From: Terracidiphilus sp.
GTDB lineage: Bacteria; Acidobacteriota; Terriglobia; Terriglobales; Acidobacteriaceae
Length of the DNA: 64,000 bases
Assembly: GCA_052147235.1 (NCBI GenBank)
Contig: JBKQLG010000313.1
Span: 82 to 64,081 of the forward strand
Direction: 5' to 3'
The notes below the pieces were generated by a model that saw nothing but the letters and a program-made list of their open reading frames with translations, made no database searches and had not been told where the DNA came from. Of the stretch, positions 20,696 to 41,309 are shown in pieces. Made by a program: the position numbers and the translations under genes. Numbering within the stretch: position 1 is the first letter of the stretch; each line of letters begins with the position of its first letter.

Positions 20696-20697
20696 CA

Positions 20698-21999
20698 ATG
20701 TCTGGCACGGCAATTGCTGTCACTCAGGGTATGGATATCGCTCGCCCAGACTTGTTGCTCAAGAAGAAGCGCCGCCTTGCGGCCTATATCGCCGCCGCGC
20801 TGGTTGTCCTGGCGGTGGGAGTGGTCGTTGTGATGCGGCTCAAGCCGGCTGCGCCTACGGTGGATCGCTCGACCATCTGGCCGGACACGGTCAAGAGGGG
20901 TCCAATGATCCGCCAGGTGCGCGGATCGACCGGCAGCCTTGTGCCGCGCGAGGACTCGATCGAGCTCATTCCCGCGCAGACCGACGCCACCGTCGTTCGT
21001 ATCCGCGTCTTGCCCGGCGCCAAGGTCACTCCGGATACCATCCTGATGGACTTGGCAGACCCGCAACTCGAGCAACAGCTTCTCAGCGCGCAGTTAGCGC
21101 TGAGGGGCGCACAGGCCGACTACAAGAGTCTTCAGGCTACGCTCGAAAGCACATTGATGGACAAAAAAACCGCCGCCGCGCAGATCAATGCCGCCTATAC
21201 CCAGGACCAGTTGCAGGCGAAGACCGACAAGGCTCTCTATGACCTTGGCGTGATTGCCGGCATTGCCTATAGCAATTCAAAGAATACAGCCGACCAATTG
21301 ACCGCTCAGCACAAGCTCAGCCAGGAGCAGCTCGACGTCAACCAGAAGGCGATCGAGGTCCAGCTCGCTTCCCAACAAACGAAAATCGACCAGGCCAAGG
21401 CCCAGCTCGACCTCTATCAGAAGCAGTCGGCGGCGCTTCAGGTCAGGGCTGGGATCTCCGGCGTTCTCGCACAGCTTCCCATTCCGTTGCAGGTGGGACA
21501 GCACGTCACCGCGGGAACCTCGGTGGCTCAAGTGATTCAGCTTGACAAACTCAAGGCCGCTCTTCAGATCGCCGAGACCCAGGCGCGCGACATCCAGATC
21601 GGCCAACCCGCCTCCATTGACACCCACAACGGCATCATTCCCGGTCACGTGATCCGAATCGATCCTTCTGTGCTGAACGGAACGGTCACCGTAGACGTAG
21701 CACTGGATGGACCTTTGCCGCCGGGCGCGCGTCCCGCCCTGAGCGTGGACGGAACCATCGATCTGGAGCGCATGACCGACGTGCTCTACGTGGGCCGGCC
21801 TGCGCTGGGCAACGAGAACTCGACACTCAGCCTCTTTAAGATCGACCCCGATGGCAAGGGCGCGACGCGCGTTCCGGTCAAGGTGGGCCGCGCCTCGGTC
21901 AACAGCATTCAAGTGCTCGAAGGATTGAAGGAGGGTGACACCGTGATTCTCTCCGATATGTCGCGCTGGGACAATGTGGATCGCATCAGCCTGGAATAA
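20698..21999 (+). CDS. HlyD/MacA-type periplasmic adaptor (membrane fusion protein)
   Basis: N-terminal anchor (KKKRRLAAYIAAALVVLAVGVVVV), a long coiled-coil hairpin (QLEQQLLSAQLALRGAQADYKSLQ...) and beta-barrel/lipoyl-like segments. If the sigma-54 element is functional, the real start is the ATG at 20731 (MDIARPDLL...). Confidence 0.85.
   Translation: MSGTAIAVTQGMDIARPDLLLKKKRRLAAYIAAALVVLAVGVVVVMRLKPAAPTVDRSTIWPDTVKRGPMIRQVRGSTGSLVPREDSIELIPAQTDATVVRIRVLPGAKVTPDTILMDLADPQLEQQLLSAQLALRGAQADYKSLQATLESTLMDKKTAAAQINAAYTQDQLQAKTDKALYDLGVIAGIAYSNSKNTADQLTAQHKLSQEQLDVNQKAIEVQLASQQTKIDQAKAQLDLYQKQSAALQVRAGISGVLAQLPIPLQVGQHVTAGTSVAQVIQLDKLKAALQIAETQARDIQIGQPASIDTHNGIIPGHVIRIDPSVLNGTVTVDVALDGPLPPGARPALSVDGTIDLERMTDVLYVGRPALGNENSTLSLFKIDPDGKGATRVPVKVGRASVNSIQVLEGLKEGDTVILSDMSRWDNVDRISLE
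20703..20718 (+). promoter_or_regulatory. sigma-54 (RpoN) -24/-12 promoter at the head of the efflux operon
   Basis: TGGCAC (20703-20708), GGCAA, then TTGCT (20714-20718), an exact match to TGGCAC-N5-TTGCW. It was the only exact match among the TGGCAC/GTGCCA sites I checked by eye. A sigma-54 enhancer-binding regulator is encoded at the 3' end of the same gene train. Confidence 0.6.
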
Positions 22000-22027
22000 C
22001 AGGGACCAGGGACCAGGGACTAGGGAC
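22000..22027 (+). repeat. tandem heptamer repeat (CAGGGAC x3 + TAGGGAC) forming a G3-N4-G3-N4-G3-N4-G3 motif
   Basis: Read directly: CAGGGAC CAGGGAC CAGGGAC TAGGGAC, immediately after the adaptor stop codon (21997-21999) and on the sense strand of the operon. Confidence 0.9.
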
Positions 22028-22067
22028 TATGAAACAGGGAATAACAATCATTTGGAAAGGAGATGAA

Positions 22068-22745
22068 ATGAACAAGAACCGCAGAAATTTTCTTTGCATG
22101 GCCGCAGCCGGCAGCGCATTGTGCGCAACCGGGACCGCCACCGCCTTCTCCGCGCCCAGCAGCGATTCCGGCTTGCTCGACCTCTTTGCAAAACGGCAGT
22201 CGGTGCGGCGCTACAAATCCGACCCAGTTCCGGAGGAGCATCTACGACAGATTCTCGACGCGGCGCGCCGTCCTCCCACCTCGGGCAATCAGCAGCCGTG
22301 GAAGTTCCTGGTCGTCCGAAACAAGGCCACCATCGAGCGTTTACGCGCGCGTAGCCTGCAAGTGTATGAATCGAATTGGCCCAAGGATTTGTCTCCTGTG
22401 GAAAAGGCATCGCGCACAGAACAAGCCACAAAACATTTGGCCGGCTACTTCTCCGCTCCACTCTTCATCGTCGTGCTTACCGATTCGCAATCCATGTATC
22501 CCTCTTACAACCATCACGACGGCCCCTTGGCGGCGGGCTATTTGTGTCTGGCGGCGCGGGCGCTTGGTTATGGAACGGTCTATGTGACCGACGCAATCCC
22601 AGAACAGGCCACGCGAGAAGTGCTGAGTATTCCCGAACGCTACGAGCGCGTCTGCATCACGCCGCTCGGCATCCCCGACGGATGGCCCGAACCGATGCCG
22701 AAGAAGAAGTTTGAGGAATTTGTCGTCTTCGAATCGTTTGCATAG
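22068..22745 (+). CDS. nitroreductase-family flavoprotein with a twin-arginine (Tat) signal peptide
   Basis: The ATG at 22068 follows AAGGAG. MNKNRRNFLCMAAAGSALCATGTATAFSA looks like a Tat signal. The nitroreductase core is RQSVRRYKSDPVPEEHLRQILDAARRPPTSGNQQPWKFLVV. Confidence 0.8.
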   Translation: MNKNRRNFLCMAAAGSALCATGTATAFSAPSSDSGLLDLFAKRQSVRRYKSDPVPEEHLRQILDAARRPPTSGNQQPWKFLVVRNKATIERLRARSLQVYESNWPKDLSPVEKASRTEQATKHLAGYFSAPLFIVVLTDSQSMYPSYNHHDGPLAAGYLCLAARALGYGTVYVTDAIPEQATREVLSIPERYERVCITPLGIPDGWPEPMPKKKFEEFVVFESFA

Positions 22746-22838
22746 GAGTAGATGAGCTTTGCAGCCAGGAGATCGAGTCCCATGCAAAGCGAAAATGGCA
22801 ACCTGTCTGACCACGAACCACGAAATAGGAGAGAGCAA

Positions 22839-23561
<723 letters not shown>

Positions 23562-23563
23562 CC

Positions 23564-26008
23564 TTGTTGCTCCAAAGCACATTTCAGGACTTGCGTTATG
23601 CGTTACGCCAGTTGCGCAAGTCGCCGGGCTTCGCTGCGCTGGTAGTGGGTACGCTGGCCTTGGGCATCGCGGCCAATAGCACTGTCTTCAGTTGGATCAA
23701 CTCAACGCTCTTCAATCCCATTCCCGGTGTTCGTGGCACGGGAAAGATGATCACGCTCCAGCGCGGAGAGAGGAGCGAGCACGCGACCCCGCCCTTCTCT
23801 TACCTGGATTATGTGGACCTGCGCGATGGCTCAAAAACTCTGACCGGTTTGCTTGCCTATCACGATGACTTCGTGGCCATCACCGGCGACGGAAGGCCGC
23901 AGCGCATTTACGCAGCGCTGACCTCCGCGAATTATTTTGAGGTGCTGGGCATCAAGCCCATTCTCGGAAGAACCCTTTTTTCTTCGCAGGCAAACGAACG
24001 CGCCGGCTCAGCGGATGCTGTGCTGGGCTACGATTTGTGGCAGAGCCGTTTTTCCGGCGATCCGGCCATCGTCGGCAAGACGATGCAGATCAACCTTCAC
24101 ACCTACACCATTGTGGGCGTTGTGCCGCGCGGCTTTCAGGGATGCAAAAGCGGACTCCGCACCGAGCTTTGGATTCCTTTGGGCATGGACCGCCAGATCT
24201 GGGGATCGTCGCGCATCGGCGACCGCGGCGTCTCCTGGCTCAATGTGCTGGGCGTGATGCGCCCCGGCATTGACCACCGTCAAGTGGAAAATGAATTCAA
24301 TCTGATGATGCAGCGCATTGCCGATGCCTACCCGGTTTCACATCAAGGCAACAACCTGATTAGCACCGACCCGCTCTGGCGCTCGCCCTTCGGCGCCAAC
24401 GTTTACCTCTATGGAACCTTGTCGATCTTGGTCGCCCTGGCGGCCGTGTTATTGCTGCTGGCCTGCGCCAACGTGGCGAACCTGCTTCTTGTGCACTCGG
24501 TCTCGCGCCGCCGCGAATACGCCATTCGCCTTTCGATGGGTGCAAAGCGCTGGAGGCTGGTCCGCCAGCTTATGGTTGAAAATCTCCTGCTCGCCATGGC
24601 CGGTGGCGGCGTTGCTCTGGCAATCACCTTCTGGACGGCCCGTTCACTGGGTTATTTCCTGACTGGCTCCTCGCTTCCCATCAGTATCAATGGTAGTGTC
24701 GATGGGACTGTCACGCTGGTCACATTCCTCGTTGCCGCGCTCACATCCGTTGTGGCGGGCGTGGTTCCGGCGCTGCGTGCCTCCGCTCTGTCTCCGGCGA
24801 CGGTGCTCAAGGATGAGGCGCTCAACACCTCCGGCGGCCTGCACAAATCGCGCCTTGCCTCCGGACTCGTAGTCCTGCAGGTTGCACTCTCGCTGACCCT
24901 GCTGGTTTGCGCCGGATTGTTCGTCCGCAGCCTCAACAAGGCCCAGGATTCCAATCTGGGCTTCGATGCCAATCATGTCTACTTGGCCTCATTCGATCTC
25001 GATCCGCTGGGATACACCGATGCCAAGGCGCTTGAGCTCGACCGCCAGATTTTGGCGCGTGTCAAGGCGCTGCCCGGCGTTGAATCCGCGACTCTGGCCG
25101 ACTTTTCGCCCCTCAGTTTCAGCATCCACTCCGAGGGTGTAATGCCCGAAGGCTACATTCCCCGTCCGCATGAATCCATAGAAGCGGACCGGGGAATCGT
25201 GGGACCCGGCTATCTTGAAACTCTTCGAACTCCTCTGATTGCAGGGCGCGACTTCACCGATGCGGACAATGAATCGACGCAGCCCGTGGCCATCGTCAAT
25301 CAGGCCTTTGTCAATCGCTACTGGCCGGGCCAGGATGCTATCGGCAAGCGCGTTCAGATTGCCGGCCAGTGGCGCACCGTTGCGGGCATGGCCGCAAACG
25401 GCAAATACCGGCGTCTGACTTACGATGCGGCGCCCCTTGTGCTTGTGCCACTGGCGCAGCGTTACGAGGATCTGCTGACTCTCCATGTGCGTGTCATTGG
25501 CAATCCGACGGCGTACGCCTCATCCATTGACCAGGCGGTCCACGACCTCAGCCCCGAACTTCCCTTGTTCAACGTCACCACTCTCAAGAACAATATGCGG
25601 ATCGGCAATGTTTTTGAGCGCATCGTCGTAGTCTTCGCTGGTTCCTTTGGGCTGCTGGCCTTGTTTCTGGCCGCAGTTGGAATCTATGGAGTGGTTTCCT
25701 ACTCGACCAGGCAGCGCACGCACGAGATCGGCATTCGCATGGCTTTGGGCGCTGCGCGTGGCGACGTCTTCCGCCAGATATTGCGCCAGGGGCTGCGACT
25801 TACCCTGATTGGCCTCACCGCCGGAATCGCCGTCTCGCTGGCCTTTACCCGTTTGCTGCGCGGCCTCCTCTTTGGCGTAGGATCTGCCGACTGGATCACC
25901 TTTGCATCCGTCTCGATTTTGCTCTCTGTCGTCGCGCTGCTGGCTTGCTACGTCCCCGCCCGCCGCGCCGCATCCATTGAACCCATGCAGGCCTTGCGCG
26001 CCGAGTGA
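23564..26008 (+). CDS. ADOP-family duplicated FtsX/MacB-type permease (paralog 1 of 6)
   Basis: 814 aa. N-terminal [19 protein letters not shown] hallmark, two large extracytoplasmic domains each followed by FtsX-type helices, and a C-terminal [17 protein letters not shown] tag. TTG start 2 nt after the NBD1 stop. Confidence 0.9.
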
Positions 26009-26034
26009 TTCTTAATAGTCAAGGAGAGAGAACG

Positions 26035-28482
26035 ATGAACACGCTGCTTCATGACCTTCGCTACGCGCTGCGCCAGTTGCGTAAGTCGCCCGGCTTCACG
26101 CTGACCGCGGTCGTCACGTTGGCTTTGGGCATCGGCGCAAACACCGCGATCTTCACCGTCGTCAATGCAGTTCTGCTCAAGCCGCTCGCGTATCCGGACG
26201 CGGATCGCATCGTACAGATCAGCACCACCTACTCCGGCGGCAGTACTTCCGTCGCTTCCATCCCCAAATTTCACAACTGGCATCAGCAGACCAGCATCTT
26301 TAAAGATATGGCCGCCTACGATTTCGCCGGTCCCGGCTTCAACCTCACCGGCGACCGCCCGGAGCAGGTCCACGGCCTCCACGTAACCGAGGGATACTTC
26401 CGCCTCTTCGGCGCTCCCGTCATGCTGGGCCGCACCTTCACTCCACAAGAGGATCTGCCCAACGGCGGCAACGTGGTGGTGTTGAGCTATGGCTTGTGGC
26501 AGCGCAATTTCGGCGGCGATCCAAAGATCGTCGGCAGTTCACTCTCGCTCGGCAATGAGCCTTATACGATCGTCGGAGTTTTGGCGAAGTCCTTCCAATC
26601 CGATCCCGAGGCGGAGATCTGGCTGCCCTTCCAATTCGAGCCCAACAGCACCAATCAGGGCGACTATTTTGAGGTTGCGGGAATGCTCAAGCCCGGCATC
26701 ACGCTGGCCCAGGCAAACGCGCAAATGAAACTAGCTGCCCAGCAGTTCCACCGGGACTGGCCAGCCCGCTCAGAGAAATTCAACGTCGAGCCTCTGCGCG
26801 ACACCATCGTCGGCAATGTGCGCGCCTCGCTGCTTGTTCTGCTTGGCGCGGTGGGCCTGGTGCTTCTCATCGCCTGCGCCAATGTCGCCAACCTACTGCT
26901 CGCCCGCGCCACGGGACGCAAACGCGAGTTCGCCATCCGCTCCGCCCTTGGCGCAGGCCGCGCGCGCATTCTCCGGCAACTGCTCACTGAAAGCGTCCTG
27001 CTTTCCGTCGCGGGAGGCGTGCTTGGCCTCATCCTCGGCTACGAAGGTCTCCGCGCCTTACTCGCCGTCAGTCCTGCCGGCCTTCCTCGCATTGGTGAAA
27101 ATGGCGCCGCGGTGGGGATCGATTGGCGCGTTCTCACGTTTATACTCGCCGTATCGCTCTTCACCGGCATTCTCTTTGGTCTCTTTCCCGCCTTGAATAC
27201 CTCGCGCCTCGATCCCAATTCCGCATTGAAGGAGACAAGCAACCGTTCCGGCACGGGATTCCGACAGAGCAAGGCTCGCTCGCTGCTGGTCATCAGCGAA
27301 GTTTCTCTTGCCATGGTGCTGCTCATCGGCTCCGCGCTGCTGATCCGCACATTCATCGCCCTGCGCGCGGTCAATCCCGGCTGCGATCCCCACAACGTGC
27401 TCACGCTCCAAATGTCGCTCACCGGCGACCGCTATCAGAAGACGGCGGGCGTAGCTCAGCTCTCGCGCGATGGCCGCGAACGCCTCAATTCCATCCCTGG
27501 CGTCGAAGCCTCCGCCTCCGCCTGCTGCCTGCCGCTCGGAGGCGCCTTCACTCTGCCCTTCACTATTGTTGGGCGGCCGCTCGGCAAGGAGACGCAAACC
27601 GGTTTCGCCGGCTGGATGAATGCCTCGCCGGGCTACTTCAACGTCTTCAAGACTCCCATTCTGCGAGGCCGCGACTTAACCGATAGTGATGTTGCCGGCG
27701 CGCCCGGCGTAGTCCTCATCAACCAGGCCATGGCGAAACAGCTCTGGCCCAACCAGAACCCGGTGGGACAGCAAATGATCCTCGGCAAGGGCTTGGGTCC
27801 TCAGTTTGATGAGCCCGCGCGCCAGATCGTAGGCGTTGTTGGAGATATCCACGACGGCGGCCTCAATCGCGATCCGCGCCCCATGATGATTATTCCCGAA
27901 GCCCAGGTGACCGATGGAATGACAGCGATGAATAGCAGCATGGGTCCGGTTGATTGGATCGTGCGCACCCACGGCGATCCGCATCGGCTTATCGCCGCCG
28001 TCACCGAACATTTGCGCCTGGCCAGCGGCGGATTTCCGGTGGCGCACGTTCGGCTCATGGACGAAATCGTAGTCCTCTCTACCGCCCGCGACAGCTTCAA
28101 TATGCTTCTGCTCGCCATCTTCGGCGCTGTTGCGCTAGTTCTGGCCGCCATCGGCATCTACGGCCTCATGGCCTACTCTGTCGAGCAGCGCAAACAGGAG
28201 ATGGGCATCCGCCTGGCTCTCGGCGCGGACCGCAACACGATTCGAAACCTCGTCGTCTGGCATGGCATGAGGCTGGCCATCGCGGGAGCATTTCTGGGTA
28301 TCGGCGCGGCCTTCGGACTCACCCGCCTGATTGCCAGCTTCCTCTTCGGCGTCAAGCCATGGGATCCGATCGTCTTTTGCACGGTGCCGGTGATTCTGAC
28401 CGTCGTGGCCCTGCTTGCCGTATGGCTCCCCGCAACCCGAGCCTCCAGGCTCGATCCCATGCAAGCACTGCGCGCCGAGTGA
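26035..28482 (+). CDS. ADOP-family duplicated FtsX/MacB-type permease (paralog 2)
   Basis: The start [27 protein letters not shown] follows AGGAGAGAG. Same two-module architecture. C-terminus [16 protein letters not shown]. Confidence 0.9.
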
Positions 28483-28508
28483 TTCTCAACATTTGAGGAG
28501 AGAGAACG

Positions 28509-31067: not shown

Positions 31068-31095
31068 ACTATTCGCACCTCCGAGGAGAAGAGGA

Positions 31096-33618: not shown

Positions 33619-33630
33619 GAAAGGAAACAA

Positions 33631-36057
33631 GTGATGCAGACGATCTTGCAAAACCTCCGCTACGCGCTGCGCCAGTTGCATAAGTCGCCGGTTTTCACTC
33701 TGACCGCGGTGCTCACGCTGGCGCTCGGCATCGGCGCCAACACCGCTATATTCACGGCGGTTTACGCCACGCTGCTGGCGCCCATGCCCTATCCCCAGCC
33801 CGACCAGCTCGTCATGGTCTGGTCCAAGATTCAGGGCTTTCACAACGGCATTGCGGCGCAGGACTTTGTTGACTGGAAGGATCAGAGCAAGTCTTTTCAG
33901 GACCTGAATGCATGGACTGGCGGCAGTTTCAATCTGGCCACCAAGGATCAGCCGGAGTATGTCGAAGGCCAGGCCACCACGCCAGGCTTCTACAAGATGA
34001 TGGGCGTCAAGTTTCTGTACGGGCGCGACTTTCTCCCCGAAGAAGGCGTGGCAGGCAGGGAACGCGTCGTGGTCCTGGTCAACAAGCTTTGGAAGCGCCT
34101 GGGCTCCGATCCAAAGATCATCGGCAAGCAAATCCAGATTGATGGCGCACCCTATACCGTGGTCGGAGTCATGGCTCCGGGCCAGCCCGATCGCCTCGAT
34201 CAGAATTTGATTGTGCCGCTTGTCTTCAAGCCAGAACAGTTGAATCACGACTTCCATTGGCTGCTGGCCATGGGCCGCTTGAAGCCCGGCGTCACCATCA
34301 AACAGGCACAGGCCGACATGGATACGGTCACCGCCAACATCGCACAGGCCTTTCCCAAAAGCAACAAGGGATGGGGCGCGTTCGTGGAGCCGCTGAAGAA
34401 TGACTTTCTGCCAAAAGAGCGTATCCAGACCCTGTGGATGCTGCTCGGCGCGGTGGGCTTTGTGCTTTTGATCGCCTGCGTGAATGTGGCCAACCTGCTG
34501 CTCTCCAAGGGAACCACACGCCACAAAGAAGTGGCCGTGCGCATCTCTCTTGGCGCTTCGCGCGCCAACATCTTTGCCCAGTTCCTGACGGAGAACCTCG
34601 TCCTGGCGCTCATCGGCGGCCTTCTCGGAGTTGGCGTGGGCGCGCTCTGCTTGCGCGGCCTCATCGCCATCATGCCTGCCGGCACGCTTCCATCCGAGGC
34701 TGACCTCAGCCTGAATCTGCCTATCCTGTTATTCTCGCTCGCCGCTTCCACTCTTGCAGGGTTGCTCTTCGGCTGCCTTCCCGCGTGGTACGCCACGCGC
34801 ATCGATCCCGGCGAAGCACTCAAGGAGGGCGGACGCGCTTCATCAGGCTCCGGCCGCCATCGCCTGCGCAAGGTATTGGTCATCGGCGAGTTCGCGCTGG
34901 CGCTTACGCTGCTCACCGGCGCGGGCTTGGCCATCCATAGCTTCTGGAATCTCACCCGCGTCGATCTCGGATTGAACACCCATCATGTGTACACCTTTTT
35001 CCTGCCCGTGCCCGACGCGCGCTCCAAGGATCCCGCACAGATCGCCGCCTACTACCAGCGAATGATCGAAAGCATCAAGTCGGTCCCGGGCGTCCTGGAT
35101 GTGTCGACAGGCACTGGCTTGCCACTCCACGGCATGGGATTTGGAATGCCCTTTACTATCGCCGGCCAACCCGACTTCGCCGACCCCTCGCAGCGGCCCG
35201 CCGCGGGCTTCGGGATGGTTACGCCTGGATACTTCAAAACCTTTGGCATTCAGGTCATCCGTGGCCGATCGTTCACTGACCAGGACAACGCAGCCAGCAT
35301 ACGCGTGGCCATGGTCAACGAAAACTTCGCGCAAAAGTACTTCAAGGACAAAGACCCACTTCAACAACGGCTCATCGTCGAAGAACTGATTCCCGGCGTC
35401 ACCAAGCTGGGCGCGCCCGTCTCCTGGCAGATCGTGGGTGTCTATCACAATGTGCGCAGCCGTGGCCTCCGCCAGGACAATCCGGAGATCGCCATTCCCT
35501 TTTGGCAAATCCCCTGGCCCAGCGCCAACATCGGAGTGCGCACCGCGGGCGACCCCGCACTGATGACCAAGAGCATCGCGGCGGCGGTCCATGCTGTCGA
35601 TCCGCAGATCGCGCTGGCTCAGCCAAGGACGATGGATGAAATTAAGAGCGACATACTCTCCGGCGATCGTTTCACCATGGTGCTCTACTTCAGCTTTGCC
35701 GTGCTGGCACTGCTGCTTGCCGCCGTCGGCATCTATGGCGTGATGGCCTTTACCGTGGCCCAGCGCGAACACGAGATTGGACTGCGCATGGCCCTCGGAG
35801 CCAGCCGCAACAACGTCGTCTCCCTGATTCTCAAGGAAGCCATACTCCTGGCGCTTCTCGGTCTCGGCCTGGGCCTGATCGGCGCTTTCTTCGTGGGCCG
35901 CGCCATGCACAGCACGCTCTACGGCATTGCCTCTATCGACTTTGCCGCCGTTTCCGTTGTCTCATTCGTTCTGCTGAGTGTGGCTTTGCTGGCCAGTTGG
36001 CTGCCTGCTCGCCGCGCCGCATCCGTCGAACCCATGCAGTCTTTGAGAGGCGAATAG
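33631..36057 (+). CDS. ADOP-family duplicated FtsX/MacB-type permease (paralog 5)
   Basis: GTG 33631 or ATG 33634. [24 protein letters not shown]... C-terminus PARRAASVEPMQSLRGE. Confidence 0.9.
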   Translation: MMQTILQNLRYALRQLHKSPVFTLTAVLTLALGIGANTAIFTAVYATLLAPMPYPQPDQLVMVWSKIQGFHNGIAAQDFVDWKDQSKSFQDLNAWTGGSFNLATKDQPEYVEGQATTPGFYKMMGVKFLYGRDFLPEEGVAGRERVVVLVNKLWKRLGSDPKIIGKQIQIDGAPYTVVGVMAPGQPDRLDQNLIVPLVFKPEQLNHDFHWLLAMGRLKPGVTIKQAQADMDTVTANIAQAFPKSNKGWGAFVEPLKNDFLPKERIQTLWMLLGAVGFVLLIACVNVANLLLSKGTTRHKEVAVRISLGASRANIFAQFLTENLVLALIGGLLGVGVGALCLRGLIAIMPAGTLPSEADLSLNLPILLFSLAASTLAGLLFGCLPAWYATRIDPGEALKEGGRASSGSGRHRLRKVLVIGEFALALTLLTGAGLAIHSFWNLTRVDLGLNTHHVYTFFLPVPDARSKDPAQIAAYYQRMIESIKSVPGVLDVSTGTGLPLHGMGFGMPFTIAGQPDFADPSQRPAAGFGMVTPGYFKTFGIQVIRGRSFTDQDNAASIRVAMVNENFAQKYFKDKDPLQQRLIVEELIPGVTKLGAPVSWQIVGVYHNVRSRGLRQDNPEIAIPFWQIPWPSANIGVRTAGDPALMTKSIAAAVHAVDPQIALAQPRTMDEIKSDILSGDRFTMVLYFSFAVLALLLAAVGIYGVMAFTVAQREHEIGLRMALGASRNNVVSLILKEAILLALLGLGLGLIGAFFVGRAMHSTLYGIASIDFAAVSVVSFVLLSVALLASWLPARRAASVEPMQSLRGE

Positions 36058-36074
36058 CAGAAAGGAACTGAATC

Positions 36075-38543
36075 ATGCGATCTATTCTTCATGATCTTCG
36101 CTACGCGCTGCGCCGGTTGCGCAAGTCGCCTGGATTTACGTTCACCGCAGTGACCGTGCTGGCGCTGGGGCTGGGCGCAAACATCGCCGTCTTCACTGTG
36201 CTGAACGGGATTCTGCTGCGCCCGCTGCCCTATGCGCAGCCTGATCGCATTGTCGAAATTAAAGGCGCGGGTTCCGAACCGTACTACATGATGAGCTACG
36301 CCAATATGCTCCAATTGCGCGACGCGGTAGGCGCAAAGGTGCGGATTGGCGCGCTATTGAACCAATCTATGGCCAGCATCGTCGCTCCCGGAGGCCGCTT
36401 CCAGGCGAAGAAGGTTGAGGTCACCGCCGGCCTGCCTGCCATGCTCGGCGTGCAACCCATCCTTGGCCGTTCCTTCCGCGACGAGGAGAACGATCCGGGC
36501 CGCAATCGCGTGGTGCTGATCGGTGAAGAGGTGTGGCGCAAGTTCTACGCCTCCGATCCTCAAATCGCAGGCAAGACGCTCACCATCAAGGGCCAGTCCT
36601 ACACCATTCTCGGCGTCATGCCTAAAGGTTTTTCATTTCCCTTTGAAGAGCAGATGCAGATATGGTCGCCCGCCGCGATCAATCCGGCCAGCCGCTCTTC
36701 AATGAGCGGCGATCAAGCGGGGTGGGGAGACCTCTACGCACGCCTGCCAGACGGCATGACAGTTGCTCAACTCACGGATCAACTGACGCGCACGCAGGCC
36801 GTCATCGCCAAGGAGGCCACCGACGGCCCATCCATACCCCCCAGAATCGTAGTCACGGAATACCAACAGTCGCTAAACCAGCAGGTTCGCAAACCGCTGA
36901 CGTTGCTCTATGCCGTGGTTCTAGGCATTTGGCTTCTGGCCTGCCTCAACGTCACCAGTCTGATGCTGGCGCGCGCCATTTCACGTACTCGTGAACAGGC
37001 CGTGCGTGCCGCGCTGGGCGCCAGCCGCGCCCGTCTGTTGCAACAAACCATCGTCGAGAGCCTTTTACTCAGTGGCATCGGCAGTGTCTTTGCGCTGCTT
37101 CTCGGCCAATCCGCCATCAAACTGCTTTGGCATCAAATCACCCGCAATTTGCCGCTCTCCAAAACCATTCATCTCGATTGGCGAGTCGTCGTCTGCCTCG
37201 CAGCGCTCACGCTCATCACGGCGATTCTTGTCGGCGTCTTCCCCGCGCTGCGCGCCACGCGCCGCGATGTTCAGGCCAGTCTGCACGGCGTGACGACGAC
37301 CGCATCCGCCAGCCAGAATCGCACCCGCGAAGCGCTGGTTATAGGCCAGCTTGCGCTTACGCTCGTATTCCTAGTCGGTGCAGGGCTTTTCTTGCGCACC
37401 ATTCATGCCCTGCGTTCGGTCCCGCTTGGTTTTTCTCAACAGAACGTGCTCACCGGCGGAATCATTCTCAATGGCGGCGGGAGACTGGAGCAGATGGAGG
37501 GCACGCAAGGAGACGCCAACATCGTGCGCACCGCCTATCTACCGCTGCTCGACCGGCTGCATGCGATTCCGGGCGTGAAAGTGGCGGCACTCAGTTCCGT
37601 GCTGCCCTTACGCGCAGAGTTTGCGGTAACCGTTTCAGGGAACGTCGACCACAAAGAAACTTCGCGTGGACAGGAACCGCGGGCCGATGGCCGCCTTGCT
37701 TCTCCGGGGCTTGTCGATGCAATGGGTATTCCCATGCTGCGCGGCCGCTTCTTCACGGAAGACGACACAGCCACCGAGCCTCCTGTGGTGGTCGTGAACC
37801 AGGCCTTCGCCAACAAATATCTGCCCGGCCAGGATCCTATCGGCCACACCTTCTACATGGGAAAAGGGCGTTATGCCAATATGCATATCGTGGGTGTGAT
37901 CGGCGATGTGAAGCAGCGCAAAGTCACCGATACCACCAGGCCGGAGATTTACTTCTGCCTGGCGCAGATTGAGCCAGGAACCCCTTTCTATGGCATCGCC
38001 ACGGCCTTCATGCAGGTGGCCATTCGCGGCGCGGTCCCCGCCGATTCGCTGCGAGCGCAATTCGACAAGGCGCTACATGAGGTTGCTCCAGACGCAACCA
38101 CCACCGATGTAAAAACCATTCACGAAGCGGTCGAAGATTCCTTCGGCAGCCAGACTTTGATTGCGCATTTGCTGGAGAGTTTCGCCGCGCTGGCGCTGCT
38201 GATTGCCTCGGTCGGACTCTATGGCCTGCTCTCATTCGCAGTGGCGCAGCGCACCCGCGAGATCGGCCTGCGCATCGCGCTGGGCGCGCCGCAAGCCAAC
38301 ATCCTCTCGCTCATTTTGCGCCGCGCGCTCTTGTTAGTGAGCGTCGGACTCGCCATCGGCGGTGTGCTTGCCTGGTTTGCTGTCATCCTTGCGCGCACAT
38401 ACATCTTTGGCGTGCAAGCCCACGACGCCCTCACCTTCACTGCGGTGGTTGTCGTGCTGGCCGCAGCCTCACTGATTGCGGCCTGGCTGCCGGCCCGCCG
38501 CGCAGCTTCCATTGATCCTAATCTTGCTTTGAGATCGGAGTAA
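36075..38543 (+). CDS. ADOP-family duplicated FtsX/MacB-type permease (paralog 6)
   Basis: 822 aa. [24 protein letters not shown]... C-terminus [17 protein letters not shown]. Confidence 0.9.
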   Translation: MRSILHDLRYALRRLRKSPGFTFTAVTVLALGLGANIAVFTVLNGILLRPLPYAQPDRIVEIKGAGSEPYYMMSYANMLQLRDAVGAKVRIGALLNQSMASIVAPGGRFQAKKVEVTAGLPAMLGVQPILGRSFRDEENDPGRNRVVLIGEEVWRKFYASDPQIAGKTLTIKGQSYTILGVMPKGFSFPFEEQMQIWSPAAINPASRSSMSGDQAGWGDLYARLPDGMTVAQLTDQLTRTQAVIAKEATDGPSIPPRIVVTEYQQSLNQQVRKPLTLLYAVVLGIWLLACLNVTSLMLARAISRTREQAVRAALGASRARLLQQTIVESLLLSGIGSVFALLLGQSAIKLLWHQITRNLPLSKTIHLDWRVVVCLAALTLITAILVGVFPALRATRRDVQASLHGVTTTASASQNRTREALVIGQLALTLVFLVGAGLFLRTIHALRSVPLGFSQQNVLTGGIILNGGGRLEQMEGTQGDANIVRTAYLPLLDRLHAIPGVKVAALSSVLPLRAEFAVTVSGNVDHKETSRGQEPRADGRLASPGLVDAMGIPMLRGRFFTEDDTATEPPVVVVNQAFANKYLPGQDPIGHTFYMGKGRYANMHIVGVIGDVKQRKVTDTTRPEIYFCLAQIEPGTPFYGIATAFMQVAIRGAVPADSLRAQFDKALHEVAPDATTTDVKTIHEAVEDSFGSQTLIAHLLESFAALALLIASVGLYGLLSFAVAQRTREIGLRIALGAPQANILSLILRRALLLVSVGLAIGGVLAWFAVILARTYIFGVQAHDALTFTAVVVVLAAASLIAAWLPARRAASIDPNLALRSE

Positions 38544-38547
38544 CACC

Positions 38548-39252
38548 ATGATCGAACTGAAAAACGTAGAACGCAGTTACCAGACCGGACCCACGGAAAC
38601 CTGGGTGCTGCGCCGCATCGGAATCACCATTCGCGAAGGCGAGTTCGTCACCGTGATGGGCCCGTCGGGCGCGGGGAAGTCGTCGCTGCTGAACATTCTT
38701 GCGCTGCTCGACGACGGCTGGAAGGGCGAATACTGGTTCGGCGAAACCGCCGCGCACAAGCTCAATCGCAAGCAGCGCGCCGATCTCGCCCGCCAGCGCA
38801 TCGGCATGGTCTTCCAGAGCTATCACCTGCTGGACGACCTGACCGTCGCCGAGAACATCGACCTGCCGCTCTCCTACAAGAACCTGCCCGCCAAAGAACG
38901 GCAGGGGATGGTGGCCGACATTCTCGACCGCTTCCAGATCGTCGCCAAGAAGGATTTGTTTCCCTCGCAGCTCTCCGGCGGGCAGCAGCAACTGGTGGGC
39001 ATTGCGCGCGCCGTGGTCCACGCGCCCGCGCTGCTGCTGGCCGACGAGCCAACCGGCAACCTGCACTCCACGCAGGCGCGCGAGATCATGAATCTCTTTT
39101 GCGAACTCAACCGCGCCGGTACGACGATTGTGCAGGTGACACATTCGGATGTGAACGCACGCTATGGCAAACGCATCATCGAGCTGCGCGACGGATGGCT
39201 CACGCGCGATGAAATGCTTCAGCCAGGAGCAACGGAGGCAGGCGCAAAGTGA
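38548..39252 (+). CDS. MacB/LolD-type ABC transporter ATP-binding protein (NBD 2, with deviant signature-flank and D-loop residues)
   Basis: Walker A GPSGAGKSS, Q-loop IGMVFQSYHL, signature LSGGQQQLVGIARAV (Leu where NBD1 has Arg), Walker B LLLADEPTGNLH (His where NBD1 has Asp), H-loop VTHS. Starts 4 nt after permease 6. Confidence 0.9.
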   Translation: MIELKNVERSYQTGPTETWVLRRIGITIREGEFVTVMGPSGAGKSSLLNILALLDDGWKGEYWFGETAAHKLNRKQRADLARQRIGMVFQSYHLLDDLTVAENIDLPLSYKNLPAKERQGMVADILDRFQIVAKKDLFPSQLSGGQQQLVGIARAVVHAPALLLADEPTGNLHSTQAREIMNLFCELNRAGTTIVQVTHSDVNARYGKRIIELRDGWLTRDEMLQPGATEAGAK

Positions 39253-41309
39253 ATCACTTCAAGTCTAATTCGGCTCGCGGCATGAAGGCCGGTGTTGCCA
39301 TTCTTCTCTTTCAAGCGAGTCTGGTGTTGGCTGCTTCACCGGCTGCCGCTCAGCTGCCGGCCCAGGCTCAAGCACAGAATCCGGGGCCGAATCAGCAGTC
39401 TCAAACCCCGTCGCCGACCACACAAACTGTGCCGGAGGCTCCTTTGCCCGCGACGAATGGCGCCACCACAGCGCCTGTTTCGTTGGCGCAACAGATTCAG
39501 CAGGTGCAGCAGCAGTCGTTTGCTCCGCCTCGACCGTTTCATGTGCCCATGCCCCACTCGCACAGACCGCTTGCGCCCTACATGCCCAGCACCGCGCCTG
39601 AACTGGACCTAAACAACTCACCGCGCATGGAGAACCTCATACGCAATGGCAAGATATATCTTTCACTGCGGGACGCTATCGCAGTGGCCATCGAGAACAA
39701 CCTCGATCTGGCCTACTTCCGCTATAACTTTCCCATCGCTCAAACCGATATCCTGCGCACCAAAGCGGGCAGCTCCGCCAACGGCGTCAACACCGCCGTC
39801 GTCCAGGGAACCCAGGGCGGGTTTGCCGCTTCCACCGGCGGCGGTGGCGGCTCATCCGGATCCGGATTCTCCGCCGGCACTGGCGGCATCGTCACCTCGA
39901 CCCTCGGTGCCGGCACCAGCGTTTCATCGTTCGATCCCTCCCTCACCTTCCAGGGCTACGTCGATCACAACGTCACCCAGGAAGCCAATGAGATTCTGAC
40001 CGGCGTGCCGAATCTGAAGACCAACACGATTGAGGTCCTGTCGACTTATTCCCAGTCGTTCCCCATCGGCACGGGCGTCCAGATCAATTATCTCGGCCAG
40101 CGTGTCGCCAGCAACACTCCTTACAACCTCATCAATCCTGAACTGTATTCCAATTTTCGAGTGCAAATCGCCCAGCCCATTCTAGCCGGCTTCGGAGTCG
40201 CCACCAACGAGCGCTTTATCCGCATTGCCAAGCGCAACTCCCAGATCACCGACCTTGCCTTCAAGGCACAGGTCATCGCCACCGTGACTCAGGTCGAGAA
40301 TATCTACTGGGATCTCGTGAATGCCTACGAGAGCGAGCAGATCAGCGAGCGCTCACTCGGCTTCGCCAACAAGAATCTCTCCGACGATCGGAAGCAGCTC
40401 GAACTCCAGGCCATCCCCGCGATGCAGGTCATGACGGATCAGTCTGCCGTGGCTCAAGCCGAAGGCAACCTCACGGTGGCGCGCGCCAGCCTTCGGCTGA
40501 ACGAGCTGCTGATGAAGAACGCGCTCACCAAGATCGACGATCCCACGATCGACGAGATGCCGGTCATTCCGCTCGATATGCATGGAGATCCCGATCCGAA
40601 TGCCGGCAAAACCATCGACGAACTCATCTCCGAAGCCGAGAAGAAGCGGCCCGAGGTCGCCATCTACCAGATGCAGGCCGAAGTCCAGAAGCAGGCCCTG
40701 AAGGACATCAACAGCGAGCTGTTGCCGACTCTCAACTTGTATGGCCTTTACGCCGGCGCAGGCACCGCCGGTCCCGTGAATCCCTTGTGCAACCCCAGCA
40801 CGCAGGATTGCTCCACCAGTCTGCCCACGGGCTTTCCCAGCATGTTCGTGAACACATTCAATTACTCGTCCCCGGAATACCAGGTCGGGATGACGCTTTC
40901 CATCAATCTGCGCAACCGCCAGGCCAAGGCCGATCAATTCCGCGCCGTGTTGCAGTACCGCCAGAGCCAGATCTCCTCCCAGCAGCAGCAGAAAGGCATT
41001 CGCTTCGACGTGCGCAACTCGAAGTTTGCTCTTGAACAGGCTCAGGCCCACGTCGTAGCAGCCCAGAAAGCGCGCGATCTTGCCCAGAAGACCTTCGACA
41101 TCACCAAACAGGAACGGTTGCTCGGCGCCAAATCCGGCCTCGATACGCTGAACGCGGAAAGCGTGCTGGCCCAAGCCGAGTCCGCTTTGGACACTGCACA
41201 AACGGCCTACGAGAAGGCGAAGGTGGATATCGACCGCGCCATCGGGGAGACGCTGGAGCGGACAGGAGTCTCCATCGACGACGCAAAATTGGGCGTAGTG
41301 ACTCACTAG
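39249..41309 (+). CDS. TolC-family outer-membrane efflux protein
   Basis: GTGA overlap with the NBD2 stop (alternative ATG at 39282). Signal peptide ...ASLVLAASPAAAQ and a Gln/Pro-rich linker. Two TolC repeats: LSLRDAIAVAIENNLDLA...Y.P.L.. and ...AQ.A..AA..A...A...F..G.....LD.L.A...L..AE. Confidence 0.85.
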   Translation: MNHFKSNSARGMKAGVAILLFQASLVLAASPAAAQLPAQAQAQNPGPNQQSQTPSPTTQTVPEAPLPATNGATTAPVSLAQQIQQVQQQSFAPPRPFHVPMPHSHRPLAPYMPSTAPELDLNNSPRMENLIRNGKIYLSLRDAIAVAIENNLDLAYFRYNFPIAQTDILRTKAGSSANGVNTAVVQGTQGGFAASTGGGGGSSGSGFSAGTGGIVTSTLGAGTSVSSFDPSLTFQGYVDHNVTQEANEILTGVPNLKTNTIEVLSTYSQSFPIGTGVQINYLGQRVASNTPYNLINPELYSNFRVQIAQPILAGFGVATNERFIRIAKRNSQITDLAFKAQVIATVTQVENIYWDLVNAYESEQISERSLGFANKNLSDDRKQLELQAIPAMQVMTDQSAVAQAEGNLTVARASLRLNELLMKNALTKIDDPTIDEMPVIPLDMHGDPDPNAGKTIDELISEAEKKRPEVAIYQMQAEVQKQALKDINSELLPTLNLYGLYAGAGTAGPVNPLCNPSTQDCSTSLPTGFPSMFVNTFNYSSPEYQVGMTLSINLRNRQAKADQFRAVLQYRQSQISSQQQQKGIRFDVRNSKFALEQAQAHVVAAQKARDLAQKTFDITKQERLLGAKSGLDTLNAESVLAQAESALDTAQTAYEKAKVDIDRAIGETLERTGVSIDDAKLGVVTH

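Follow-up and report, generated by a model that had tools for sequence, protein, structure and literature searches.

A large operon in the window (the whole 64,000-nucleotide stretch of Terracidiphilus sp. DNA analysed here; all features described below lie on its + strand) probably encodes a tripartite efflux system of the cell envelope, of type VII ABC and resembling MacAB-TolC, in which a conserved chassis is combined with exchangeable permease cassettes of the ADOP family. The chassis comprises a membrane-anchored adaptor, the ATPases NBD1 and NBD2, a TolC-like duct, and an NtrC-type sigma-54 response regulator paired with a histidine kinase. The source organism is a soil acidobacterium. 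Comparison of this locus with its relatives suggests a power source for this large family of permeases, which supposedly lack ATPases.

In the mechanism that we propose, a histidine kinase and its response regulator would become activated, possibly on sensing transporter activity in the membrane, and would then direct sigma-54 transcription of a single long, nearly leaderless mRNA. Two ATPase subunits would dock on each ADOP, at its pair of conserved coupling helices and at the helices of both termini, most likely as one NBD1 and one NBD2, or as two copies of NBD1 where NBD2 is missing. An adaptor hexamer and the outer-membrane duct would bind the two periplasmic domains of the permease, and ATP-driven mechanotransmission would drive substrates out of the periplasm or outer leaflet. 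On this single chassis, the six permeases would form alternative complexes with separate substrate ranges, for which amphipathic antibiotics or peptides made by soil competitors are likely candidates. Cassettes would be gained and lost when conserved gene ends undergo homologous recombination.

Organization of the operon

Open reading frame listing and scans with Pfam and NCBIfam profiles confirmed as real all eleven genes of the region 20698-41309, which occur in the order adaptor, nitroreductase, NBD1, permeases P1 to P6, NBD2 and outer-membrane factor (OMF). A sequence-only reading of the window had described these eleven same-strand genes with sizes and spacers that match the measured values, and its placement of ADOPs inside a complete adaptor/NBD/OMF operon is borne out. 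Its position for the adaptor start, 20698, did not hold; the most likely start is 20731, and positions 20703-20717 form a sigma-54 promoter. The region as it was delimited also missed the control region upstream and two genes, for a sigma-54 response regulator and a histidine kinase, by which the unit extends directly downstream of the OMF.

The adaptor and nitroreductase genes are separated by 68 nt and the nitroreductase and NBD1 genes by 93 nt, and the spacers from NBD1 through to NBD2 measure, in order, 2, 26, 26, 28, 15, 17 and 4 nt. With the GTG at 39249 as its start, the OMF gene would overlap that of NBD2 by 4 nt, and the same overlap is found in the related loci L002 and L029. Terminator-like or sigma-70-like sites are not in excess inside the array, and no foreign-island signature is seen in the base composition.

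Six permeases with two MacB-like halves

All six permeases are intact and full-length, and each matches the ADOP profile TIGR03434 from end to end, with 778-946 bits compared with a cut-off of 622.3. With their most likely start codons, they are P1 (23564-26008; 814 aa from a TTG start; 847 bits), P2 (26035-28482; 815 aa; 946 bits), P3 (28509-31067; 852 aa; 865 bits), P4 (31096-33618; 840 aa; 842 bits), P5 (33634-36057; 807 aa; 905 bits) and P6 (36075-38543; 822 aa; 778 bits). Each contains two MacB_PCD and two FtsX domains and no ATPase domain. The earlier assignment of the permeases as MacB-type ADOPs holds.

In each ADOP, a single chain contains two MacB-like halves that make up a pseudo-dimer, with four transmembrane (TM) helices and a periplasmic domain per half. 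An AlphaFold2 model of P2 (pLDDT 80, pTM 0.71) has eight TM helices, and a Foldseek search with this model returned YbbP first (E 1e-19) and MacB next, while in sequence the ADOP halves are closest to MacB. The N- and C-terminal tags that had been noticed previously are both present. The N-terminal tag is family-wide, and the C-terminal tag is the ordinary C-terminus of an FtsX/MacB permease domain that recurs mid-protein after TM4. Among themselves the six proteins are merely 34-41% identical, and they differ mainly in their periplasmic parts. Averaged over pairs, identity reaches 0.7 at the N-terminus and 0.70 at the C-terminus, is 0.5-0.58 in both coupling-helix regions and falls to 0.14-0.43 in the periplasmic domains.

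Adaptor, outer-membrane duct and nitroreductase

The periplasmic adaptor (20731-21999; 422 aa) is a membrane fusion protein that matches HlyD_3, HlyD_D23 and TIGR01730 (97.4 bits; cut-off 94.9) and carries a single N-terminal TM helix and a long coiled-coil hairpin. Its start, ATGGATATC (ATG GAT ATC at 20731), is kept in ~80 loci with variation at third positions, and the protein is 50-88% identical between loci (median 64%). The TolC-like OMF (39249-41309; 686 aa) contains two OEP repeats (PF02321, E 1e-31), a signal peptide, a Q/P/T-rich low-complexity N-terminal region of ~110 aa and a Gly/Ser-rich insert, and is 43-67% identical between loci.

The nitroreductase-family protein (22068-22745; 225 aa; PF00881, E 1e-29) bears a twin-arginine signal peptide, MNKNRRNFLCMAAAG...AFSAP. 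It had been counted as a component of the operon, but no homologue was found in any of the 84 other loci, and the gene is a lineage-specific insertion outside the conserved system. Four tandem copies of CAGGGAC (22000-22027), identified with Tandem Repeats Finder, lie immediately 3′ of the adaptor stop codon and border this insertion.

A conserved chassis surrounds a variable permease slot

Relatives of NBD1 occur in more than 597 species-level genomes, and gene order was compared in the best 80 of these, from Terriglobales. As the loci were anchored on NBD1, systems that lack this gene are invisible to the comparison. The order adaptor-NBD1-[0 to 6 ADOPs]-NBD2-OMF-response regulator-kinase is conserved in ~80 genomes. 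NBD1 is 81-98% identical in 81 loci (median 86%), and median identities across loci are 76% for NBD2 and 68% for the response regulator.

The slot between NBD1 and NBD2 or the OMF was initially scored as holding no permease in 14 loci, one in 13, two in 12, three in eight and at least four in ~24. On inspection, three of the zero-scored loci proved to carry a frameshifted ADOP (L046), ADOPs upstream of the adaptor (L075) and only a relic of an ADOP N-terminus (L029). There are also intact chassis whose slot is permease-free, for example in L042, L056, L063 and L079. At ≥55% identity, the 161 array permeases form 64 clusters, and even the closest relative of the locus studied here (L005, NBD1 98% identical) has a different permease set. 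The 6:2:1:1 ratio of permeases, NBDs, adaptor and OMF that had been put forward as an architecture is therefore one state of a variable array and is not fixed. Support has grown for interchangeable permease heads that share their machinery, both from the conserved chassis with its 0-6 cassettes of ~64 types and from the conserved cytoplasmic versus divergent periplasmic surfaces and the orthologues shared between arrays and orphan genes.

Two ATPases flank the slot

Both NBD1 (22839-23561; 240 aa; PF00005, E 5e-35) and NBD2 (38548-39252; 234 aa; PF00005, E 5e-30) are MacB/LolD-type ABC ATPases, and they are 42% identical. The top NCBIfam matches of NBD1 are DarD, MacB and LolD, every one under the equivalog cut-off, and its closest PDB entry is 5xu1_A (E 5.5e-68). 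Its motifs, including the D-loop TGNLDS, are canonical and invariant in 84 of 84 sequences. NBD2, whose relatives form more than 100 clusters at 84-93% identity, has the D-loop TGNLHS, in which His replaces the canonical Asp. Among the sequences compared, this residue is Asp in all 84 NBD1 proteins, and His in 43 and Gln in one of 44 NBD2 proteins. Asymmetry of this kind is known from heterodimeric ABC ATPases.

A heterodimer of NBD1 and NBD2 is a plausible engine for each pseudo-dimeric permease. A possible, if doubtful, alternative is that each ATPase forms a homodimer, the two homodimers driving different subsets of permeases or NBD1 acting as the general motor and NBD2 as a specialised alternative, with adaptor and duct still shared. 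In favour of homodimers, both proteins keep all catalytic motifs, and NBD2 orthologues have an intact Walker A, Walker B, signature and H-loop. In the solved structures of YbbAP, BceAB and LolCDE, two copies of a single ATPase serve each complex (PMC12646458; PDB list). Moreover, the two coupling helices within an ADOP closely resemble one another and do not alone demand two different ATPases. Against homodimers, NBD1 and NBD2 occur together in 44 of the 48 fully covered loci, always on either side of the permease slot and adjacent where the slot is empty; the His-for-Asp change is fixed solely in NBD2; and no permease subset follows the presence of NBD2. The remaining four loci (L039, L049, L057 and L070, the last being Terriglobus roseus DSM 18391) are otherwise intact, hold 0 to 2 permeases each and have NBD1 without NBD2. 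Because of these loci the heterodimer is not obligatory, and the earlier proposal of two separately encoded NBDs per pseudo-dimer stands as plausible but not as a requirement.

Array permeases and their orphan relatives

The cassettes differ in how widely they are shared. P3 is the most widespread, in a cluster with 16 array members at ≥55% identity, and array orthologues of P1 (62-90% identity) and P4 (65-75%) occur in eight and seven loci, whereas those of P5 (57-62%) and P6 (69-72%) occur in two loci each. P2 has an in-operon orthologue in L085 (88% identity), but its nearest relatives are mostly solitary genes (L088, 84%; L087, 77%; L089, 75%), none of which has an NBD, adaptor or OMF gene less than 10 kb away. 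No sigma-54 promoter was found at these orphan orthologues, and so they are not co-regulated with the chassis. On the strength of the permease-free intact chassis and of the array and solitary positions of P2 orthologues, we consider that the chassis probably also powers orphan ADOPs elsewhere in the genome, in trans; alternatively, these may be served by other ATPases.

This distribution bears on a reading that we judge unlikely, in which only the core permeases (the P1, P3 and P4 types) form the tripartite pump, and the other array members and all orphans work on their own as inner-membrane extractors, like LolCDE or YbbAP, and borrow at most the ATPases. Between 7 and 16 other loci have P1, P3 and P4 orthologues in this operon setting, where P2, P5 and P6 are rare; the solitary relatives of P2 fit as well, and adaptor-less type VII systems are common (PMC5985334). 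However, the six genes are packed tightly between the NBD genes in one transcription unit, all six proteins have MacB_PCD matches in their periplasmic domains, and no feature marks out an adaptor-docking subset.

Parts of this arrangement have been described before. YbbAP, whose structure is already solved, combines a duplicated type VII permease in one chain with separate ATPases (PMC12646458). In Psychroflexus torquis, ten ADOP paralogues clustered beside ATP-binding transporter genes were described in 2014 (PMC3914696). Given these two systems, the architecture, which had been thought undescribed, is novel only with respect to the acidobacterial chassis and its logic.

Probable exchange of cassettes at conserved gene ends

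Nucleotides 1-90 of P2 share 83-100% identity with P4 and 40-67% with the orphan orthologue, and this relation flips past ~nt 90. P2 is thus a mosaic, in which the first ~90 nt resemble the array neighbours and not the gene's own orthologues, marking a recombination junction. The use of identical codons at identical residues is likewise raised at the N-terminal (0.67) and C-terminal ends (0.58) relative to the gene bodies (0.42-0.49). That the array is a mere landing pad, where conserved ADOP gene ends create a recombination hot spot beside functionally unrelated ATPases, adaptor and duct, is highly improbable: the mosaic P2, the raised synonymous identity at gene ends, the very high cassette turnover among close relatives and the frameshifted or relic ADOPs in the slots of L046 and L029 would fit, but the six genes here are undamaged, the array spacers are short (2-28 nt) and contain ribosome-binding sites, the slot lies exactly between two matching MacB/LolD-type ATPase genes in ~80 genomes, and the ABC chassis, which has no other membrane component, would be functionless unless ADOPs provide one.

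Predicted regulation by a sigma-54 two-component system

The gene that follows the OMF (41493-42872) encodes an NtrC-type response regulator with receiver, sigma-54 AAA+ and Fis-type HTH domains (Pfam Response_reg, Sigma54_activat and HTH_8), and a regulator is found at this position in ~35 of the 37 loci with sufficient sequence. No canonical start codon was found ahead of the DD pocket of the receiver, and translation probably begins at the ATC at 41505, which GGAGG precedes. The histidine kinase (42862-44217; 451 aa; HATPase_c and HAMP) also lies 3′ of the regulator in related loci. Sequence and hydropathy give it two TM helices with ~6 residues of periplasmic loop between them, followed by HAMP, a PAS-like stretch and HATPase_c; by this predicted topology it has no periplasmic sensor domain and is an intramembrane-sensing kinase.

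Upstream of the adaptor, the sigma-54 (-24/-12) promoter TGGCACGGCAATTGC (20703-20717) is the sole exact TGGCAC-N5-TTGC in the 64 kb, and it ends 13 nt before the start codon at 20731. A GG-N10-GC element at -28 to -31 from the adaptor ATG is found in ~68 of 82 loci and scores well over background. With the GC of the -12 element 13-16 nt ahead of the ATG, a leaderless or nearly leaderless transcript is predicted. The palindromic enhancer TGTTCATAATCGGACA (20595-20610; consensus TGTYCR-N4-YGRACA), the sole exact match in the window, is the presumed binding site for the operon's own sigma-54 response regulator; with at most one mismatch, 74 of 80 related loci have it, and 56 of these keep it at a constant distance from the adaptor ATG (offset -136 to -140). 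Both enhancer and promoter are missing from some permease-free loci (L075, L076, L078 and L080), which might be regulated otherwise or be in decay. Between the two elements, an AT-rich stretch read from the sequence (20659-20699) contains the inverted repeat TTGTTTT...AAAACAA and is possibly an IHF-type bending site, and its TTTTCAA core is kept in part across the upstream alignment.

Eleven consecutive genes, six of them for ADOP permeases

The sequence-only reading had traced eleven consecutive genes on the + strand from 20.7 to 41.3 kb, and this gene content is borne out by an ORF map together with Pfam and NCBIfam scans. The first gene encodes a HlyD-type adaptor (TIGR01730, 97.4 bits against a cut-off of 94.9; HlyD_3 and HlyD_D23 domains) with an N-terminal transmembrane (TM) helix and a long coiled coil. 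It is followed by a nitroreductase-family gene, an ABC ATPase (NBD1, 22839..23561), six permeases of 807–852 aa (P1 to P6 in gene order), a second ABC ATPase (NBD2, 38548..39252), and a TolC-like outer-membrane duct (OMF, 39249..41309) that has a signal peptide and two OEP repeats (PF02321, E 1e-31). All six permeases are ADOPs, as the sequence-only reading had proposed: they score 778–946 bits against TIGR03434 (cut-off 622.3) and cover the model from position 1 or 2 to position 803 of 803. Their internal duplication is also evident, as Pfam finds two MacB_PCD domains and two FtsX four-helix units in every chain, and the two halves of a chain are 23–28% identical to each other. Terminal tags had been noted as well. 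The N-terminal tag is family-wide and is tighter in arrays, whereas the C-terminal tag is the normal end of an FtsX domain, recurs mid-protein, and was discarded as an ADOP-specific signal.

Spacers of 68 and 93 nt flank the nitroreductase gene; from NBD1 onward, the likeliest start codons leave only 2–29 nt between genes. NBD2 and OMF overlap by 4 nt when OMF is started at the GTG at 39249, and the same overlap is seen in other loci. Terminator-like and sigma-70-like sites are not enriched within the array, the region shows no compositional anomaly of the kind that would mark a horizontal-transfer island, and an Rfam scan of the window gave no match. The two ATPases are 42% identical. Because P1–P6 share only 34–41% pairwise identity, and each cassette has its own orthologues elsewhere, recent tandem duplication was rejected as the origin of the array. 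OMF is ~200 aa longer than typical TolC proteins owing to two features in the stretch 39282–39700, a Q/P/T-rich low-complexity region of ~110 aa after the signal peptide and a Gly/Ser-rich insert (GGFAASTGGGGGSSGSGFSAGTGG); its counterparts in related loci are similar in length (628–671 aa).

A conserved chassis in Terriglobales

Relatives of NBD1 were found in at least 597 genomes in a scan of one genome per species, and the best 80 of these are all Terriglobales, with Terracidiphilus, Granulicella sp. L60, Terriglobus roseus DSM 18391, Paracidobacterium acidisoli and Ca. Sulfotelmatobacter represented. NBD2 matches more than 100 clusters at 84–93% identity. Loci were anchored on NBD1 with 10 kb on each side, and arrays of more than three permeases were thus counted as lower bounds; every ORF of the best 80 loci was then classified against the window proteins. 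This survey of acidobacterial genomes upheld the proposed neighbourhood. The order adaptor, NBD1, ADOPs, NBD2, OMF, sigma-54 response regulator (RR) and histidine kinase (HK) is recurrent, and it is the same in the gene calls of an independent collection. We refer to the six non-permease components as the chassis, and to the space between NBD1 and NBD2 as the slot. Identity to the window protein across the related loci is 81–98% for NBD1 (median 86) and 72–94% for NBD2 (median 76), with medians of 68 for RR, 64 for the adaptor, 49 for HK and 48 for OMF. Among the best 80, L031 and L080 (full acidobacterial chassis, NBD1 at 84–85% identity) belong to metagenome-assembled genomes labelled Verrucomicrobiia and Gammaproteobacteria; these contigs are most likely mis-binned.

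The nitroreductase does not belong to this conserved set. A homologue is absent from the other 84 loci and stands between the adaptor and NBD1 only in the window genome, and the gene was rejected as a system component on this ground. Four copies of CAGGGAC, detected with Tandem Repeats Finder, border the insertion directly upstream, and we regard the gene as a lineage-specific insertion. It carries a twin-arginine export signal (22000–22745 region; RRNFL; MNKNRRNFLCMAAAG...), which would make its product a periplasmic flavoenzyme.

A variable permease slot

The content of the slot, from NBD1 to NBD2 or OMF, varies widely. No ADOP was scored there in 14 loci, one in 13, two in 12, three in 8, and four or more in ~24, the last class being limited in its counts by the 10-kb flank; the window holds six. 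The 6:2:1:1 ratio of permeases, ATPases, adaptor and duct to which the sequence-only reading had drawn attention is therefore correct as a count for the window but is not a fixed property of the system, given a slot that holds from 0 to 6 ADOPs. Clustering of the 161 full-length array permeases at ≥55% identity gives 64 clusters, 33 of which are singletons. The commonest clusters include those of P3 (16 members), P1 (8) and P4 (7), and P5 and P6 have two array orthologues each. L005, the nearest locus by NBD1 (98% identity), carries a different set that comprises an unrelated ADOP, an orthologue of P1 (90%) and an orthologue of P6 (72%).

Nine loci (L042, L056, L063, L064, L076, L078, L079, L080 and L084) have no permease between the ATPase genes, and their chassis is intact and conserved. 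A set of adaptor, ATPases and duct that lacks a membrane subunit is sensible only if that subunit is encoded elsewhere. Inspection of other loci scored as empty gave three further situations. In L029 (Granulicella sp. L60), 587 nt separate NBD1 from NBD2 (10724–11309 of that locus), and this gap still codes for the decayed N-terminus of an ADOP (EDLRQAMREMPWFVAAVVLLIAMGVGINA), a scar left where the slot lost a permease. The slot of L046 contains a frameshifted ADOP. L075 (1–10000) arranges the same parts in another way: its three ADOP genes are located 5′ of the adaptor rather than between NBD1 and NBD2, and it lacks the usual enhancer and promoter.

To our knowledge, the original description of the family held that ADOP genes are essentially never adjacent to ABC ATPase genes. 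This does not apply to P1–P6, and the view that ADOPs are 'not orphan here' is supported by the position of all six between two ABC ATPase genes, an arrangement repeated in most of ~80 loci. True orphans of the same orthogroup exist too; being an 'orphan' is a matter of gene context and not a trait of the protein. Orthologues of P2 are numerous, at 74–91% identity. One of 88% identity occupies the same operon position (L085/L086), and those at 84% (L088), 77% (L087) and 75% (L089) are solitary, lacking any ATPase, adaptor or OMF neighbour within 10 kb. Co-regulation of these orphans with the chassis was considered and rejected, as they have no sigma-54 promoter upstream.

Comparison with the orphan orthologue reveals that P2 is a mosaic gene. 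Its first ~90 nt are 83–100% identical to the 5′ end of P4 and 70–90% identical to that of P3, but only 40–67% identical to the orphan orthologue. From approximately nt 91 onward the relationship is reversed, with 82–91% identity to the orphan orthologue and ~55% to P3 and P4. At the protein level, the orphan clade of P2 starts MGxLWNDIKHSLHMFIKNPGFTIA, and the in-operon clade has a different start. When the six genes are compared at identical residues, the use of identical codons is 0.67 at the N-terminus and 0.58 at the C-terminus, compared with 0.42–0.49 in the bodies. The mosaic structure of P2 and the raised codon identity at the gene ends point to homologous recombination or gene conversion at these conserved ends, which measure ~90 nt on the 5′ side and ~50 nt on the 3′ side, as the route by which cassettes would be exchanged. 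A further relative of P2, P0150 (82% identical), has an N-terminal extension of ~68 aa before the usual ADOP start, which we take to be similar to the 'permease prefix' of some orphan ADOPs.

Permease fold and conserved surfaces

An AlphaFold2 model of P2 (pLDDT 80, pTM 0.71) contains eight long TM helices, and both of its periplasmic domains are rich in beta structure. Short helices lie at residues 296–304 (between TM2 and TM3) and 720–728 (between TM6 and TM7), and a poorly ordered cytoplasmic linker is seen at residues 400–411. Foldseek searches with this model place YbbP first (9ge6_A, E 1.4e-19, over the whole length), followed by MacB, a MacB-like permease of S. pneumoniae, LolC/E, BceB and HrtB. 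By sequence, each ADOP half is closest to MacB (best PDB match, E 2e-23). The fold, the positions of the coupling helices and the MacB/LolD-type ATPases identify the system as a type VII ABC transporter of the MacB superfamily. P2 falls outside the YbbP family proper (NF041854), with 25.8 bits against a cut-off of 999 and eight TM helices rather than ten.

Conservation among the six paralogues is unevenly distributed along the chain. Mean pairwise identity is ~0.7 over P2 residues 1–40, 0.51–0.54 in the first coupling-helix segment (residues 281–320), 0.55–0.58 in the second (residues 701–740) and 0.70 over the last 15 residues, and it is 0.14–0.43 in the two periplasmic domains. Where type VII transporters have been solved, it is the ATPase-facing elements that are conserved (PMC12646458). 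The working end is formed by the periplasmic domains. A 2018 survey of MacB-family topologies lists fusions only of the ten-helix kind with two linker helices (PMC5985334), and YbbP and BceB likewise have ten; the eight-helix direct fusion of ADOPs is thus a further permutation, absent from that survey, that extends the type VII architecture.

Two kinds of ATPase

Both NBDs are closest to 5xu1_A, MacB, MJ0796 and LolD, and both retain the Walker A motif, Q-loop, LSGGQ signature, Walker B motif with its catalytic glutamate, and H-loop. They differ in the D-loop, which reads TGNLDS in 84 of 84 NBD1 sequences. In NBD2 the corresponding residue is histidine in 43 of 44 sequences (TGNLHS in 42 and TGNLHT in 1), and the other reads TGNLQS. 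Because this asymmetry is fixed and the pairing on either side of the slot is constant, an NBD1:NBD2 heterodimer seated on the asymmetric pseudo-dimer would fit. NBD1 and NBD2 occur together in 44 of the 48 loci covered. The four that lack NBD2 (L039, L049, L057 and L070, the last from T. roseus) count against a heterodimer, since NBD1 must suffice there. We judge the case for a heterodimer, as drawn from these sequence patterns, to be about evenly balanced.

A predicted sigma-54 control region

Downstream of OMF, the + strand encodes an NtrC-type sigma-54 RR (Response_reg, Sigma54_activat and HTH_8 domains) and then an HK with HAMP and HATPase_c domains. The two TM helices of HK are joined by approximately six residues, and the kinase therefore has no periplasmic sensor domain.

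The adaptor gene had been thought to start at 20698, but that start overlaps a sigma-54 element. The element, TGGCAC-N5-TTGC at 20703–20717, is the sole exact match to the sigma-54 consensus in the window and is a predicted promoter. We place the start instead at the ATG at 20731 (ATG GAT ATC), which is conserved in ~80 loci with variation at third positions. The exact sigma-54 pattern has no match in L001–L004, and L002–L004 show only a weak variant, recognized by eye (TGGTGC-N5-GTGC). Conservation elsewhere was seen after the pattern was relaxed to GG-N10-GC and scored by position: this element lies 28–31 nt 5′ of the adaptor ATG in ~68 of 82 loci, and scores far above the background from random segments. 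Further upstream, at 20595–20610, is an enhancer-like palindrome (TGTTCATAATCGGACA). A palindrome of the form TGTYCR-N4-YGRACA is present in 74 of 80 loci, and in 56 of these it is located at –136 to –140. At the level of sequence, the operon thus has the three hallmarks of sigma-54 operons: an exactly spaced –24 GG/–12 GC promoter, an enhancer site farther upstream and an activator of the NtrC type.

In the window and in ~80 related loci, the –12 GC is only 13–16 nt from the conserved adaptor ATG, which places the predicted transcription start 0–4 nt 5′ of the start codon. From this distance the mRNA is predicted to be leaderless or nearly leaderless. A leaderless mRNA from a sigma-54 promoter is an unusual combination. 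The conserved arrangement of enhancer, sigma-54 element and predicted leaderless start is of interest because the phylum has almost no promoter-level data.

The beginning of the RR gene is atypical. No ATG, GTG or TTG precedes the DD pocket of the receiver domain (41493–41580), and the first canonical start, a TTG at 41577, would remove this pocket. A perfect GGAGG stands 6 nt ahead of an ATC at 41505, and this points to translation from a non-canonical codon, although the gene may instead be damaged. A 60-codon ORF at 41333–41515 (MHASTQPVLHRAAAPIVAAAG...) fills most of the 230-nt gap between OMF and RR, and a 30-codon ORF is called at this place in L001; the ORF of the window is probably not a gene.

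Relationship to known transporters

At the gene level, the system resembles MacAB-TolC of E. coli (5nik). A cognate, membrane-anchored adaptor and a TolC-family duct with two OEP repeats are encoded alongside MacB/LolD-type ATPases. In each ADOP half, TM1 and TM2 enclose a MacB periplasmic core domain, and an FtsX four-helix unit follows. MacB, however, is a homodimer with a fused N-terminal ATPase, whereas an ADOP is one 8-TM chain with separate ATPase genes of two kinds. The window system also has up to six alternative permeases per operon and is predicted to be under sigma-54 two-component control. YbbAP-TesA of E. coli (9ge6–9ge8; PMC12646458) offers a precedent for the permease itself: YbbP, too, is a type VII permease duplicated within one chain, it has two periplasmic domains and two coupling helices, and the two ATPase subunits that serve it are encoded apart from it. 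In contrast, YbbP has ten TM helices including two linker helices, where the ADOP model has eight and a cytoplasmic linker; YbbA is one ATPase used twice with one permease only; and the partner of YbbP is a periplasmic lipase, with no adaptor or duct.

The darobactin exporter DarBCD (NF038008/NF038010/NF038007) pairs a separate ATPase with a duplicated FtsX-type permease of ~777 aa and also has a periplasmic adaptor. Both NBDs have DarD as their top NCBIfam match, and DarC aligns end to end with the adaptor. The window proteins are nevertheless not DarB, DarC or DarD equivalogs by score (NBDs, 242 and 239 against 375; adaptor, 54 against 450; permeases, 25–30 against 700), and DarBCD differs in having one permease, one ATPase and a tie to a biosynthetic cluster. 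BceAB-BceRS of Firmicutes (7tcg, 8g4c) is also a type VII system in which a single-chain permease is served by two ATPase subunits, and it is linked to an HK that lacks an extracytoplasmic sensor domain and senses transporter activity. BceB differs in its ten TM helices and its single extracellular domain, Bce systems have neither adaptor nor duct, and their regulator is OmpR-type rather than the sigma-54 NtrC-type found here. Flux sensing by the window HK is only an analogy with the Bce kinase.

The sharing of one ATPase module among many substrate-specific components, most of them encoded elsewhere and seemingly 'orphan', is known from group II ECF transporters (EcfA-EcfA′-EcfT with many S components) and from MsiK/MsmK, the multitask ATPases of sugar ABC importers, and the ECF module contains two different ATPases. 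These are importers of other folds that have neither a periplasmic adaptor nor an outer-membrane duct. We know of no description of such sharing for type VII or tripartite exporters.

The architecture had been thought undescribed, and our literature search is in agreement as far as the acidobacterial chassis is concerned. However, an ADOP cluster beside ATP-binding genes was noted in 2014: genomic island 43 of Psychroflexus torquis has ten ADOP-annotated paralogues, highly expressed and clustered with transporter genes, some of them ATP-binding (PMC3914696). This is prior notice that ADOP arrays can adjoin ATPases. The island differs from the loci described here in that it is from Bacteroidota, spans 42 kb, includes a thioesterase and is more YbbAP-TesA-like; it is without the adaptor, OMF and sigma-54 chassis, and neither a comparative analysis nor a mechanism was proposed (PMC3914696). 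ADOPs are annotated in other Bacteroidota too, with RAST calling 28–33 copies in Dyadobacter genomes (PMC11573002). The search found no paper on ADOP function, energy source or TIGR03434, and Granulicella omics studies mention only generic 'macB' copies. It likewise found no description of a chassis conserved across hundreds of species, of the 0-to-6 slot, of the link between array and orphans, of the two-ATPase asymmetry, or of the enhancer, sigma-54 and leaderless control region. The family assignments are secure and not new. YbbAP is already solved as a type VII system whose duplicated permease is one chain and whose ATPases are separate, and versions with a linked adaptor are annotated (DarBCD, DevBCA).

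A possible shared engine for ADOPs

Our functional statements are all based on sequence and context. The operon would be expressed as one sigma-54 transcript and would yield alternative ADOP–(NBD)2–adaptor–OMF complexes, each with another periplasmic specificity, in which MacB-like mechanotransmission would expel periplasmic or outer-leaflet substrates. Orphan ADOPs would be served in trans and, if BceS is a guide, HK may detect its signal within the membrane or by way of the transporter. For the substrates, our guess is amphipathic antibiotics or peptides from competitors, in line with the MacB, Bce and DarB relatives. It is possible, although somewhat doubtful, that one sigma-54-switched chassis per genome is the engine of the whole ADOP family, dozens of orphans included, with an ECF-like modularity in which cassettes recombine between orphan sites and the array and the kinase reads transporter activity.

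ADOPs are among the largest paralogous families of soil Acidobacteriota. A conserved single-copy chassis that takes many permeases would explain in concrete terms where these 'ATPase-less' permeases get their power, and it singles out two ATPase genes without which the entire ADOP family should fail at once. The locus suggests that module sharing, known from ECF and sugar importers, also occurs in tripartite exporters. Rapidly shuffled periplasmic 'heads' on one pump would constitute a flexible defence against the diversity of soil antibiotics and peptides.

Elsewhere in the window, related tandem repeats of 18–21 nt with GCACYGCAGGTG are present at three places ~8 kb apart (50161–50200, 50285–50349 and 58700–58740).
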